Below, in pieces: positions 35,301 to 47,467 of a DNA stretch of 64,000 nucleotides. The stretch is from a virus: the IMG/VR virus record IMGVR_UViG_3300012148_000003. The stretch is one strand, 5' to 3'. The notes below the pieces were generated by a model. It was not told the origin of the DNA and made no database searches. It saw only the letters and a program-made list of their open reading frames with translations. The first letter of the stretch is position 1. Each line of letters starts with the position of its first letter. The translations under genes and the position numbers were made by a program.

Positions 35301-35350
35301 TTAATACCTTTTGAAAAGAAGTCTCCCATCATCTTTAGGTGGTGAGTTAC
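35301..35350 (+). mobile_element. IS200/IS605-type right-end-like remnant, copy 1
   Basis: GAAGTCTCCC-ATCATC-TTTA-GGTGGT-GAGTTAC hairpin; related copy at 42109. Confidence 0.5.
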
Positions 35351-36690
35351 TGACCTTTAGTAATGTAGGAAATCAGATCTTCTCTTGTATTATCTAAGTC
35401 TCCATCAATGACTAGTTTTAATAATTTATTCAACCACACACCTATGTCTTTTCCTTCTTTTAGTAGTAATATTTTCTTTATGTCATTTCCATTTATAGCT
35501 AAATCTTTTAAGGAAAAGCAGGATTCTTCGGACAATATTTCGTCAAGCAGCATTTTTATATTTTTAACTTTTTGTAGTCTATCTTTGTTATAATGTGGTG
35601 TTTGACCTTTTATATCAGCTTCTCTTACAGACAAAAGCCTCCTAAACTGCTTTTCTCCAATTTTATTTAGCCATCTTTTGATATATTTCTCACCGATTTC
35701 AAAGGTGGCATCGTGATAATATACCAACTCAACAACTTCGTTTCGAGTATTATTGTCAAATCTAAGACGTTTCATAATATCATTTGTCATATCAGCACTT
35801 ACTTTTCCATGACCCTTAAAATGCCTAAGACCATCATCCTCATCTTGAAAACAATGTGGTTTACCGAAATCATGAAAGAAAACTGCTAACCTAACAATCA
35901 AATCATCTGATTTACAATGCTCTATTGCCTGAAATGTATGTTCATACACGTCATAGGCATGATGCGGATTATTCTGTTGAAAGCCAATCATATCTTTTAG
36001 CTCTGGTATAAATAATGAAAACACTTCGCTATATAAGATAAGCTGGATACAGAATTCTTCAGATTGAGCTATTTTACAGAACTCACTATTAATTCTCTCA
36101 ATAGATATATTCTCTAAATTCTTATATTGTTGATGGATTTCCCAATCTGTTCCCGGCACAATTGTGAATTCTAATTGAGAAGCTAAACGAATTGCCCTTA
36201 AAATTCTTAAGGCATCTTCTCTGAATCGCTCTTTTGCTGAACCAACACATTTAATTTTCTTATGCCTAATGTCATCCATTCCATTAAACGGATCAATCAA
36301 ACCTGTTTTGGGATTGTATGCCATAGCGTTAATAGTAAAATCCCTACGTTTCAAATCTTCAATTATACTGTCCGTAAATTTCACTTCATCTGGTCTACGA
36401 CTATCAGAGTATTCGCCATCTACCCTAAATGTTGTAATTTCATATGGTTCATCATTTATTAATATTGTGACTGTACCATGTTGTAATCCGGTAGGAATGA
36501 TATTTTCATATGGTAAAGCCTTTCTAATCGCATCTGGCGTGGCAGATGTACAAATATCATAGTCGTGAGGGATTCTGCATAAAGCACTGTCTCTTACGCA
36601 ACCACCAACCATATATGCTTCATGTCCACATTTCTCAAGTTCCTGAATAATGAAATAAACTGGCGCAGGAATTTCTATATTAAACTTCAC
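35347..36690 (-). CDS. cca: CCA-adding tRNA nucleotidyltransferase with HD domain
   Basis: VGGCVRD, HDYDI, DLKRRDFTINAMA, RFREDALRILR, HDFGKP. Confidence 0.92.
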   Translation of the reverse strand: MKFNIEIPAPVYFIIQELEKCGHEAYMVGGCVRDSALCRIPHDYDICTSATPDAIRKALPYENIIPTGLQHGTVTILINDEPYEITTFRVDGEYSDSRRPDEVKFTDSIIEDLKRRDFTINAMAYNPKTGLIDPFNGMDDIRHKKIKCVGSAKERFREDALRILRAIRLASQLEFTIVPGTDWEIHQQYKNLENISIERINSEFCKIAQSEEFCIQLILYSEVFSLFIPELKDMIGFQQNNPHHAYDVYEHTFQAIEHCKSDDLIVRLAVFFHDFGKPHCFQDEDDGLRHFKGHGKVSADMTNDIMKRLRFDNNTRNEVVELVYYHDATFEIGEKYIKRWLNKIGEKQFRRLLSVREADIKGQTPHYNKDRLQKVKNIKMLLDEILSEESCFSLKDLAINGNDIKKILLLKEGKDIGVWLNKLLKLVIDGDLDNTREDLISYITKGQ

Positions 36691-43940: not shown

Positions 43941-44900
43941 TCAGAATAACCAATTATCTTCTCTTACTTTAAATGCATCACCACATTGTATAATGTCTGG
44001 GTAATTATATTTTGCAATAGCTTTAGCCCATTTATCAATTTCATAAGCCTTATATGTAATATTTGTATATCCCAATCTATCTAATACATATCTGCCAGTA
44101 CCTATTCCATCATATAAAGATAGAACTTCTATAGGATAATCCTTTGAGATATTTATACCAGATAGAATATGAATGATAACATTTGCTACCCAACCATTTC
44201 CAGAACATTCATATCTCCATCTTTCTGGAATTTCAATTATATTATTATCCTCATCAGCACCATACTGTGTATATTTTACTGGCATATTAAATAGTTTTTC
44301 TACTTCTTCTGGAGTTAATTGCCTTATACAACCAATCTGATTTTCGTATACTTTTCTATCATCTTCTTTCCAAAGATTTTTTTGGTATTCCGGTGTGCAA
44401 TTTTCAAAAACTGCTTGCCCCATACTTTTCCCAAAGTATCTTCTTCTCAGATAGTCTTGACTTCCTTGAAAACCAGCATATCTCCGGGCAATACATAGAG
44501 ACTTTTCTCTATCTACTACTCCACTATCAATACAATCAGATAATTTAATTTTCATATCTTGTGGCTGTTCAACATCAAGATTAGTCCAATAAACCCTCTT
44601 TCTCGTCTGTCCACTTACTAAGGCCGCATCAATCATTACATAAGGAACTCCAAGATATTTACTTACTTCATCTTTGACCGATTGTGAAATTGAATGATTA
44701 TTTTCAACCATAAACACATCTGGTTTAAATTTTTCTTTTACAATTACTCCATTTAAAAATAATTCCCATCCCTCACCGCTGTTAGGTTCGGTTTCTCGTC
44801 TGTCTGCTCTTTGACATACACTAAATTTTGTGCATGGAAAACCAAATATTAATAATCTTAAAGGTCTACCATTTAAACTTTTCGTTTTATTATCTTTCAT
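43941..44900 (-). CDS. C5-cytosine DNA methyltransferase, circularly permuted (motifs IV-X then I-III)
   Basis: GFPC (IV) at the N-terminus, then ENN, QTRKR, RQLTPEE, GNGW; the C-terminus carries LSLYDGIG (I), YEID (II), GDA (III). Confidence 0.88.
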   Translation of the reverse strand: MKDNKTKSLNGRPLRLLIFGFPCTKFSVCQRADRRETEPNSGEGWELFLNGVIVKEKFKPDVFMVENNHSISQSVKDEVSKYLGVPYVMIDAALVSGQTRKRVYWTNLDVEQPQDMKIKLSDCIDSGVVDREKSLCIARRYAGFQGSQDYLRRRYFGKSMGQAVFENCTPEYQKNLWKEDDRKVYENQIGCIRQLTPEEVEKLFNMPVKYTQYGADEDNNIIEIPERWRYECSGNGWVANVIIHILSGINISKDYPIEVLSLYDGIGTGRYVLDRLGYTNITYKAYEIDKWAKAIAKYNYPDIIQCGDAFKVREDNWLF

Positions 44901-45074
44901 TTATTACCTTGTATTCCAAGGCCATGCATAGCTTCTCAACCGGTATTACTTGTACTTTCCTTTCGTTTATGTAATATTTTTGTTCGCTTTTATCAGATGT
45001 TCATGACCACCAGATAAAACGAAAATTTGTTCTTTTTAATTTTTTTCGAGATAAGAACAATTTCCTTACCCCAA

Positions 45075-45155
45075 TCGGAAGAGCGGGAGTTGAACCCACA
45101 TACCCAAGCCAAGTTGATCGTGCGCACAACGCTTTACCGGTTAAGCTATCTTCCG
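45075..45155 (-). tRNA. Degenerate tRNA-like gene with irregular anticodon arm
   Basis: Acceptor CGGAAGA/TCTTCCG, D-arm GCTT-AACCGGTA-AAGC, T-arm GTGGG-TTCAACT-CCCGC; bulged anticodon stem, no U33. Confidence 0.65.
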
Positions 45156-45159
45156 AGGT

Positions 45160-45196
45160 GTGCCCGGATTACATCGGATTATGCAAATCCGGACAC
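45160..45196 (-). other. Long stable hairpin between the ROOL-like RNA and the degenerate tRNA
   Basis: GTGTCCGGAT/ATCCGGGCAC plus TGCAT/ATGTA. Confidence 0.7.
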
Positions 45197-45204
45197 TATT
45201 TTTT

Positions 45205-45780
45205 TAAGCTCGGCCGAGCTTTTCTGTAACGAAGCTTCAAGGACTCCGTTTGAGCGGCTGCATGAGCGTACCCACCAGTTTTCCGACACCATATTTTTCT
45301 TTTAGAGGACGCTTTAGGGACGGCCCTTGAGACTTCTAAACCAATAAATCCTCCGGCTTAGTTCTTCACCCCTCTTGTAAGTCTGATAGTTCTGGGTTCT
45401 TGTAAGTCTGATAGTTCTGGGTTCTGCAGAAACCTTTGTTGTGAAGCTTTAAGGACTTCATTTGAGTGTATAGGCCTACACACCTACAATCTTATAAATA
45501 GGATAGGTAAGAGGACACAGCTACCAAGACATATCGTCATATGAATGATACTCTGTCATCTATACCACTGATCCCCTGTGAAAAGATTGTCTCCCACCAT
45601 TAACTTTGACAAAGCTTGAAGGACTTTGCTTGAGGCTGATACTTGTCGTTCCCACGCGCCCGACCCACCTACTTTTTGTTACGGGTCGGGAACTATGCAA
45701 CACGACACTCATAGTTTGTATTACCGTTCCGCTGCCCTTGCTGTCAGCCGAATGTCTATGTTAGTACTCACCACCTATTT
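45205..45780 (-). ncRNA. ROOL-like large structured RNA (~575 nt)
   Basis: Non-coding and hairpin-rich in a prophage tRNA island. Ordered blocks CAAGTATC, AAGTCCTT, CACAGGGGATCAGTGGTAT, TCTTGGTAGCTGTGTC, AAGATTGTAGGTGT, CAAAGG, GGTGAAGA, TGTCGG..AACTG, GTTACAG match ROOL sequences as I recall them; ends approximate. Confidence 0.8.
45373..45422 (+). repeat. Perfect 25-bp tandem duplication inside the ROOL-like RNA
   Basis: TCTTGTAAGTCTGATAGTTCTGGGT at 45373-45397 and 45398-45422. Confidence 0.95.
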
Positions 45781-45804
45781 GTTTTGTTTTTTGAAATAAT
45801 TGAC

Positions 45805-45916
45805 TTGAATTAGTCATCCGAAATTGTTATAATAAAGATAACAACTTGGATTATTCCTTGTTGATTGTATAAGCACTCTGTCACTCGCCAAAGTTAAGCA
45901 GAGTGCTTTTTATTTT
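45805..45916 (+). ncRNA. Candidate ~75-nt antisense sRNA unit (promoter plus terminator)
   Basis: TTGAAT-N17-TATAAT with TG; terminator AAGCACTCTG/CAGAGTGCTT followed by a T tract. Confidence 0.6.
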
Positions 45917-45926
45917 GTAATAAAAA

Positions 45927-46223
45927 TCATCCGTCAAATTGATTAACAAATGTCTTAAACTCTTGAAAATCTGCTCTGGTCATTATAATATCAGAATAGT
46001 AGAAATCTTTGTTTCTGATAATTGCCCAGATTTTCTTTATCTTTTCCCGCAAACACCGGGAAGCTCCACGTTGATCGCGATAAAAATTACTATTAAAATA
46101 ACTCACAAAAGCGAAATATCCATAACTATCATCGATCCTGATATGTACACCTTCGTCACAACCGCATTTACACGAAACTATTAATTCTTTCTTGTTTTTG
46201 GTTAATAATACTGACATCACCAT
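45927..46223 (-). CDS. Hypothetical phage protein
   Basis: CKCGC motif; GGAG RBS. Confidence 0.7.
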   Translation of the reverse strand: MVMSVLLTKNKKELIVSCKCGCDEGVHIRIDDSYGYFAFVSYFNSNFYRDQRGASRCLREKIKKIWAIIRNKDFYYSDIIMTRADFQEFKTFVNQFDG

Positions 46224-46267
46224 TCTCCTTTTAAAATGTAATTAGAACATTCACGTATTGTTCCAAA

Positions 46268-46341
46268 TGGACTTTGCAGGACTCGAACCTGCGGTCGACC
46301 GGTTATGAGCCGGTTGCTCTAACCAACTGAGCTAAAAGTCC
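46268..46341 (-). tRNA. tRNA with CAT anticodon, tRNA-Ile2 type; no encoded CCA
   Basis: GGACTTT-TAGCTCAGTTGGTTAGAGCA-ACCGG-CTCATAA-CCGGT...GCAGG-TTCGAGT-CCTGC-AAAGTCC-A. Confidence 0.92.
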
Positions 46342-46344
46342 AAA

Positions 46345-46700
46345 TTTGTTTTTCTAAGTATTAGTGAAGTATGCCAGTTACAGCTATTAAATCTCTGACA
46401 CACCTCATTGACTTATATGCCAATTATTAGCACTACGCAACGGTTCTCGTAGAGGAATAAATATAACATTTACACATGTATATGTGTTTTATATATTCAC
46501 ACCTTAAGAAGTTTGCCGCCTTACTAAAATGTCCCCCTGCTGCGAGTAAACTTCTCGAAACTGCAATTGTTAGGAGGGTGCTATATGTGTCCAAACGGGG
46601 CACCTTAATCCCGTTTGTAAGCGATTTTTTTGAAATTTTTTAATGTGCTCCTATTGTGTTTAACAATAGGCTTTCGGGCAACCGCTGTTCCTAACACAAG
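46345..46700 (-). ncRNA. Candidate structured RNA between the pseudo-tRNA and tRNA-Ile2
   Basis: Several 7-8 bp stems and a possible pseudoknot; no ORF. Confidence 0.5.
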
Positions 46701-46772
46701 AACCACCACGAGGAATCGAACCTCAAATCGCTGAAGAAGACAAGTACAACGTACCGCATTACTTTGGTGGTT
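46701..46772 (-). pseudogene. tRNA remnant or mimic with acceptor stem and T-arm only
   Basis: AACCACCA/TGGTGGTT and TGAGG-TTCGATT-CCTCG; D and anticodon arms are not recognisable. Confidence 0.6.
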
Positions 46773-46930
46773 TTTTTGTAATAATCTTTTTTTGACGGAC
46801 TTATGACTGTCATTTTTGTCAAGTGCTTTATTTTTTTGTAACTTTTTTGGTGTTTTGTTTGCAAGAATATTTTGTGTTTACAACCATTCGACTGTCAGAT
46901 CATAATGGCCGTTTCTTGTTTACTATAGTC

Positions 46931-46959
46931 ATGATAACACACTTTCCATATCTTGTCAA
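46931..46959 (-). promoter_or_regulatory. Promoter of the RNA island: TTGACA-N17-TATCAT with TG
   Basis: -35 at 46954-46959, -10 at 46931-46936. Confidence 0.7.
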
Positions 46960-46979
46960 TAAGAATTTTTATTGTTTTA

Positions 46980-47005
46980 CGAACATTTTTTCGAACATTT
47001 TTTCG
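46980..47005. promoter_or_regulatory. Two overlapping LexA-box-like 14-mers CGAACATTTTTTCG
   Basis: Copies at 46980 and 46992; one mismatch to GAAC-N4-GTTC. Confidence 0.5.
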
Positions 47006-47038
47006 GATATATATTTCGGACTATTTTAGCAACTATTT

Positions 47039-47467
47039 CTAATACGGTTCAGGTAGCGGCATCCAAGCAACCACAGGTGTTTTAATATTAAAGTAGGTTC
47101 CCATGTATTGCGTTACAAATACATCAGTGCCATCTAATCCACCGCAACACAATACACTCGTATTGATTTCTGGTAATTGTTGAGTCACCGGAATCCAACC
47201 AGATAAACTATCACCCATTGCATCATTGATCACATTCTCCAACTCTATAGGGGACAAATCATTTAGACTAGCAAATTTCAACCCCAAAAACTTCTGCCAG
47301 CAAGCCGATTCTGGTAATTCACAACAATTTTCTTCACACCACGGATCAGCTCTTTTTCTCATGTACTTGCTAATGTGATCAAAATTACAAGGACTACCAA
47401 ACAAATCACCAAGTTCCTTATATACAGCTTTCAGCTGATCAGCTGCCGTAAAATTATTCTTATCCAT
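47039..47467 (-). CDS. DUF551-like domain protein
   Basis: WIPVTQQLPE...VVAWMPLPEPY. Confidence 0.75.
   Translation of the reverse strand: MDKNNFTAADQLKAVYKELGDLFGSPCNFDHISKYMRKRADPWCEENCCELPESACWQKFLGLKFASLNDLSPIELENVINDAMGDSLSGWIPVTQQLPEINTSVLCCGGLDGTDVFVTQYMGTYFNIKTPVVAWMPLPEPY

Follow-up and report, generated by a model that had tools for sequence, protein, structure and literature searches.

A predicted cassette of small folded RNAs in an exchangeable slot of a phage tRNA island

Introduction

It is an old observation that the tRNA regions of phages encode stable RNAs to which no function is assigned. RNAC and RNAD of phage T4 come from its tRNA region, and their role is not known (PMC3014915, PMC9697503). 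The RNAs GOLLD and ROOL are found close to the tRNA islands of phages, and the linker of GOLLD can include tRNAs (10.1101/2024.12.08.627333). Theta ribozymes, whose cleavage site lies no more than 5 nt from the end of a tRNA, require an HDV fold with a catalytic C (PMC10879173). Finally, phage TE has an RNA mimic directed against a type III toxin (PMC5086642), and type III toxins occur in gut Clostridiales (PMC3401426, PMC5086642, PMC12283969).

Here we analyzed a window, that is, the whole 64,000-nt stretch of one viral record, in which a sequence-only reading had described positions 46345-46700 as a single structured unit of 350 nt, with a possible pseudoknot and perhaps a processing ribozyme. 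The stretch is a structured gene other than a tRNA inside a phage tRNA cluster, as RNAC and RNAD are. On balance, its sequence favors a cassette of small, separately folding RNAs in a phage tRNA island, which would be freed at the flanking tRNAs.

Results

The locus and its flanking tRNA-like genes

The window starts with an integrase and a partial tRNA, likely the integration site, and belongs to a large temperate phage, of which it forms one arm. The integrase lies at a tRNA-Arg site, and minus-strand phage genes in the window encode the phage's own DNA polymerase and helicase, a RecJ-like protein and ribonucleotide reductase. The distant relatives of one flanking gene are found in phages of about 150 kb, most of them in one IMG/VR catalogue, which we take to be that of the human gut. 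The structured RNA lies in a gap of 815 nt, with ORFs 47039-47467 and 45927-46223 on either side. The elements around it are the following:

46931..46959, minus strand: strong sigma-A-type promoter (11/12 consensus, extended -10)
46772..46925, minus strand: conserved leader with a long hairpin (46918-46862) and A-tracts
46701..46771, minus strand: tRNA-Asp(GUC)-derived cloverleaf, found by ARAGORN at relaxed threshold only and missed at default
46267..46342, minus strand: intact tRNA with a CAU anticodon and no encoded CCA; its anticodon stem covaries between alleles
35347..36690, minus strand: CCA-adding-enzyme-like phage gene (PolyA_pol, HD and tRNA_NucTran2_2 domains)

Both hexamers of the promoter (46959-46931) are conserved across all aligned alleles, and judging from its sequence it probably drives the RNA island. 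The leader carries TGACAGTC twice (46897-90 and 46812-05) and, at 46822-17, a -35 hexamer with no -10. The hairpin at 46862-46918, with the 8-mer repeat in its loop and a G-U to A-U change in three sister contigs (L159-161), is a candidate RNA element or operator.

The upstream cloverleaf retains a 7-bp acceptor, a 3-bp D stem and an intact T arm, and it lacks CCA. We took a 5-bp anticodon stem, a 7-nt loop, a purine at 37 and G73 as the marks of a functional tRNA-Asp; here the GUC triplet lies on a 4-bp stem with a 13-nt loop, and U37 and U73 (the discriminator) are present in 5/5 variants. By established tRNA rules this cloverleaf is probably neither charged with Asp nor decoding. Across the five variants, 98.9% of cells are paired, five one-sided changes keep their pairs and one breaks its pair, and the acceptor, D and T arms are conserved while the anticodon loop drifts. 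The cloverleaf is likely to be a punctuation mark for RNase P and RNase Z. Its T arm (46710-46724) is identical over 15 nt to that of the partial tRNA at the window start (35-49).

The downstream CAU tRNA is presumably of the Ile2 type, as in Firmicutes tRNAs. The product of the CCA-adding-enzyme-like gene could in principle mature the CCA-less ends. The 98-aa ORF that follows the CAU tRNA belongs to no Pfam or PHROG family, and it stands between the structured stretch and the next non-coding block.

The stretch folds as six adjacent modules

The 356 nt of the stretch fold at -94.2 kcal/mol (z -3.98), a value reached by 0/100 shuffles, which bears out the dense folding that the sequence-only reading had proposed; with a cruder shuffle its z (-3.6) is the lowest among 12 intergenic stretches of the window. 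It consists of six adjacent modules, D1 to D6, on the minus strand:

46568..46696, minus strand: D1, 129 nt, with P1, P2, P3, a 23-nt A-rich single strand, P4 and a candidate knot
46695-89/46575-69, minus strand: P1, the 7-bp closing helix of D1
46617-10/46599-92, minus strand: P4 hairpin
46577..46617, minus strand: candidate H-type pseudoknot (stem 8 bp, loop 5, stem 5 bp, loop 10)
46626..46642, minus strand: A-tract 17-mer in D1, identical to the tract just upstream of the -35 box in strong Lachnospiraceae promoters
46506..46556, minus strand: D2, with an invariant 9-bp closing stem, a 4-bp inner stem and a variable 22-nt loop
46453..46504, minus strand: D3, AT-rich hairpin of variable length (z -3.2)
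46418..46452, minus strand: D4 (5-bp stem, 46452-33) and D5 (46432-18), abutting hairpins
46365..46407, minus strand: D6, 13-bp hairpin with three G-U pairs, common to both major alleles

Every stem named from the sequence alone was found in its place on the minus strand, P3 being of 8 bp (46670-63/46657-50) instead of 7; that list had passed over the 7-bp helix P2 (46686-80/46626-20) and the 6-bp hairpin at 46432-18. D1 folded alone reaches a z of -3.45, with pair probabilities of 0.85-1.0 for P1, P3 and P4 and about 0.6 for P2. D6 has a z of -3.5 on the minus strand and +0.1 on the plus. D2 is weak alone (z -1.1), and D4-5 are likewise not significant alone.

The stretch is also non-coding, as had been claimed, with no credible ORF: open frames of 56 aa and 55 aa are interrupted by indels in a sister allele. 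Small peptides on either strand were rejected because their frames are not kept between alleles, including a plus-strand SD-ATG mini-frame of 7 aa in the window and 16 aa in a sister allele. A promoter-like site (46469-46497) and a terminator-like site (46793-46812) on the plus strand could bound an antisense RNA of 310 nt, which would contain a perfect SD and, at 46585-46608, a frame of 7 codons; the putative antisense promoter is deleted in the diverged allele A' described below.

The modules occupy a slot that is exchanged between sister phages

Relatives were collected as contigs of the same phage lineage by exact-protein look-ups and come from one series of metagenome samples; the contigs are not independent samples, so counts of alleles mean little. 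The sister contigs share the promoter, the leader and both tRNA-like genes, and carry two alleles. Allele A (the window, L165-167 and L170) is identical across the stretch as far as the contigs reach, with a diverged form A' in L175 and L197. In allele B (L159-164, L171 and L172) the match to the window breaks off after 46699 and resumes at 46407. Both tRNA-like genes are retained, and the boundaries, sharp at these two positions, define the slot:

46408..46698, minus strand: swappable slot, 291 nt in the window versus an unrelated folded cassette of 176 nt in sisters

Homology of alleles A and B was rejected, with no significant alignment (P 0.12). Allele B, with D6 included, has a z of -4.2. 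Its cassette (L162:3658-3835) consists of an 11-bp hairpin, a U-rich tract that could base-pair with the A-rich leader, a second hairpin and a domain of 62 nt, and has no match in Rfam. The slot is accessory and dispensable, and it is exchanged between sister phages. Since sister alleles swap or alter modules separately, the stretch is a series of exchangeable modules in one slot rather than a single molecule, and the unit of 350 nt first described is not supported.

Several differences between sister phages lie downstream of the slot. In one allele-B phage an extra tRNA-Arg(UCU)-like gene, detected at relaxed threshold, follows directly 3' of the CAU tRNA (L159:3278-3347), and the downstream ORF differs from that of other phages. 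In other sister phages (L163:1876-3665, L166:1868-3443, L167, L171) a TnpB (Cas12f1-like) element of two size classes, about 360 and 457 aa, is inserted near window position 45777, directly after the 98-aa ORF and on the 5' border of the non-coding block that comes next. This block (45205-45780) has no ROOL match in Rfam at E<=10; its counterparts in sister phages are about 83-93% identical to it, with indels. A second degenerate tRNA, at 45074-45156 and with an irregular anticodon arm, is also kept in sister phages. Some allele-B phages (L162:4830-6341, L172) carry a HEARO RNA (Rfam 122 bits) with an IscB-type RRXRR-HNH gene at a site corresponding to about 45434-45254 of the window, 3' of the block and at one of its repeated motifs. 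In the related phages L220 (1300-1500) and L224 (1330-1510), a CAU tRNA comes after a small-gene pair and a promoter and is preceded by a common folded leader of about 170 nt.

Changes between alleles preserve the predicted structure

With the structure predicted from the window alone, alleles A and A' were compared over D1-D5, where they differ by 20 substitutions. These hit nine of the 77 predicted pairs, and seven of the nine stay paired, two by changes on both sides (in D3 and D4); the two broken pairs are both in D2, in its weak interior. When the same substitutions are placed at random, a mean of 7.7 pairs is broken (permutation P 0.0011), in what is one comparison with one informative diverged allele, partly aligned by hand. 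D3 is 27 nt shorter in L175, and its four changed pairs are all kept (4/4), one of them on both sides; since MAFFT placed the gap at another site, the D3 alignment was anchored manually. D4 shows a compensatory change from U-A to C-G, D5 a change from U-G to U-A, and half of D6 is replaced in L175. The minus strand is taken as the sense strand because G-U-tolerant changes (in P2, D3 and D5) and the G-U pairs of D6 fit only there. Together, the alleles give evidence of moderate strength that an RNA structure is under selection on the minus strand. Lack of conservation in related phages and a fold no better than shuffles had been named as what would speak against the structure; it holds, because a related phage shows structure-preserving changes, and the fold beats shuffles.

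Divergence between A and A' is 2.3% in D1, 8% in both tRNA-like genes, 8-12% in D2-D5 and 5-12% in ORFs. D1 would be the most constrained of the cassette's products and is, from the folding models, probably pseudoknotted; recent recombination could contribute to its low divergence, since the promoter and leader are equally conserved (1.6% versus L175).

D1 and its candidate pseudoknot

The complementarity proposed for a pseudoknot is present at 46604-00/46581-77. In geometry this would be an ordinary H-type knot, which stacks one base away from P1. A knot of equal size appeared in 12/2000 shuffles and, given the P4 hairpin, a 5-bp partner is expected by chance in about 5%. A rival hairpin (46603-46587) overlaps the candidate: in the window the P4 fold is 4.4 kcal/mol ahead of it, whereas in A' the rival 6-bp hairpin is perfect and 1.4 kcal/mol better than the P4 fold, the pseudoknot energy not being counted. 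A' has a one-base insertion, with which the knot would retain four Watson-Crick pairs and acquire a G-U pair; this single variant is compatible with the knot and shows no covariation there. Overall, the models make it fairly probable that D1 forms the H-type pseudoknot, and it is possible that D1 is a two-state RNA.

The A-tract 17-mer of D1 was found in 9/61 Lachnospiraceae genomes, against two control matches; in five of the nine it precedes a -35 box, two of these at tRNA genes. In D1 the tract is followed by a degenerate -35 (4 of 6) with no -10. Part of D1 may derive from an old promoter, or the match may be a by-product of its A-richness.

Searches for known RNA families and ribozymes

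Rfam searches at gathering and E<=10 thresholds returned only tRNAs and noise. Twister, twister-sister, pistol, hatchet, group I introns and riboswitches had no match at E<=10 among 4227 Rfam families, and no module matches a known antitoxin, CRISPR repeat or tRNA arm. Likenesses to tmRNA pk1, RNase P, the M-box, c-di-AMP and Cas13 repeats were considered and dropped, as cmscan gave nothing. Blastn against phages and plasmids found tRNA or AT-rich chance matches only; five motif scans of viral contigs found no module homologue, only chance matches or phage CAU tRNAs without modules; and a metagenome scan found alleles A and A' only, besides one chance match. The cassette is absent from the human-gut-catalogue phages that carry the 98-aa gene or the CCA enzyme, a recurring 35-nt match there being inside a coding gene. 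Synteny does not extend to more distant relatives of the flanking genes. Covariance models of D1, D2 and D6 found no homologue in 42-63 phage records, nor did those of D1 and D2 in 150 Lachnospiraceae genomes, their reach being limited because they were built from 2-3 near-identical sequences; the D1 model had a sole outside match, in the promoter of a host tRNA, which it owes to the A-tract. The pseudoknot pattern is absent from 401 Lachnospirales genomes searched. Among the sequences searched, the predicted RNA modules are uncatalogued and restricted to this phage lineage.

The sequence-only reading had placed the structure a few nucleotides 3' of the tRNA remnant, and the remnant indeed ends at 46701, with the first G of P1 at 46695, a borderline position for a theta ribozyme. 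D1 lacks the nested double pseudoknot P1-P2-P3-P1.1-P4 of theta and HDV ribozymes, with its catalytic C in J4/2. A theta descriptor that finds the published theta0001, alone and embedded, returned nothing in alleles A, A' and B at zero mismatches; at one mismatch it gave loose matches in every sequence, and those listed in A center on the tRNA T-loop instead of D1. The hammerhead core (CUGANGA, GAAA) is likewise missing, with CTGA absent from the sense strand in all alleles. In sister phages an unrelated hairpin follows the same tRNA end. The suggested processing ribozyme finds no counterpart among known classes, and a ribozyme would be unnecessary here because the elbow and acceptor, which RNase P and RNase Z would read, are still present in the cloverleaf.

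Discussion

In the cassette that we favor, one precursor would be transcribed from the strong promoter at 46959, and host RNase P and RNase Z, as in general tRNA processing, would cut at the non-decoding cloverleaf and at the CAU tRNA, freeing the cassette. Its products would be stable, helix-capped RNAs, shielded by their terminal helices. As a guess, RNA-binding proteins of the host, for instance defense nucleases or toxins, might be their targets in trans, with the RNAs serving as ligands or decoys. We put this role forward only tentatively, by analogy, because alleles are swapped in a fixed slot and the pseudo-ToxI of phage TE provides a precedent (PMC5086642). D1 is like ToxI, CptI and TenpI only in its candidate H-type knot of about 41 nt, which would carry an A-rich loop and is preceded by A-rich sequence (PMC3401426, PMC5086642, PMC12283969). 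However, its stems are of 8 and 5 bp versus typically 3-4 in ToxI (PMC3401426), and the candidate knot is enclosed by P1 instead of being flanked by free tails, with no adjacent toxin gene. The type III layout of tandem repeats, terminator and toxin gene is missing: D1 is single copy in the window, and the next genes are a tRNA and the 98-aa ORF. If the products are decoys, the slot would be an RNA-only counter-defense locus, diversifying like anti-defense protein loci. For now, the very small size of the family, a function that is only guessed at and a phage not in culture limit the value of the slot; nevertheless, three natural versions of one slot (A, A' and the unrelated B) in matching surroundings are a ready-made functional comparison.

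HK022 put and Bacillus EAR are antiterminator RNAs, and D1 could similarly act on the long single-strand operon downstream, either by modifying RNA polymerase as a nascent RNA or as an attenuator. The cassette, like them, is a folded RNA soon after a promoter, and EAR is of similar size with a pseudoknot. The strong promoter with its repeated operator-like 8-mers lies close upstream, D1 has two near-isoenergetic folds in L175, and allele B places its 11-bp hairpin and U-rich, leader-pairing tract at the same spot. Unlike put and EAR, the cassette has no Rfam match and sits in a dispensable slot between tRNA genes. No minus-strand terminator was called in 44850-47100, and the slot is replaced wholesale while the downstream region stays unchanged, so that we consider this reading unlikely.

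The stretch could also be debris, that is, decayed promoters and tRNA genes whose inverted repeats are incidental or act at the DNA level, without an RNA function. The host-promoter A-tract and degenerate -35 inside D1 would fit this, as would the restriction to a single lineage, the dispensability of the slot and an island that also gathers TnpB and IscB insertions. Against it stand the compensatory and G-U-tolerant changes, the strand-asymmetric folding of D3 and D6 and the z near -4 of both alleles, which leave debris quite improbable.

It is very doubtful that the tRNAs and modules are domains of one larger ornate RNA, comparable to GOLLD or ROOL. The D4 loop (46445-38) can pair over 8 bp with 46687-80 in both A alleles, and the cassette resembles these RNAs in being a structured RNA, function not known, in a prophage tRNA island, where GOLLD may hold tRNAs in its linker (10.1101/2024.12.08.627333). 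Yet the cassette is much smaller and modular, its modules swap separately, Rfam finds only tRNAs and noise in 44850-47050 and no match to ROOL or GOLLD, and the 98-codon ORF intervenes before the next non-coding block.

Finally, D1 as a self-cleaving ribozyme of an undescribed pseudoknotted class, which would make or trim the 3' end of the tRNA-like RNA, is highly improbable: although D1 is compact, conserved and able to form a pseudoknot, and as a gut-phage RNA shares with theta ribozymes a 7-bp, G-initiated helix 5 nt past a tRNA end, at the edge of the theta +/-5 nt window (PMC10879173), it measures 129 nt versus about 55, lacks the catalytic-C junction, has a strand order that is not HDV-like, with no P3/L3/P1.1, no GG after P1 and no P2 3' strand, and the CAU tRNA and allele B do without it. 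If true, D1 would be the first member of its class, carried in a slot that the phage uses to exchange RNA tools.

In conclusion, the closest comparison for the preferred cassette is with T4 RNAC and RNAD, which are also small RNAs other than tRNAs, of a role not known, in a phage tRNA region (PMC3014915, PMC9697503). The T4 RNAs were detected experimentally whereas the cassette is predicted from sequence, and its slot is polymorphic; the likeness drawn here is one of kind. Within that comparison, the alleles indicate that the structured RNA set is real, corresponds to no known ribozyme and is of the general kind of RNAC and RNAD.
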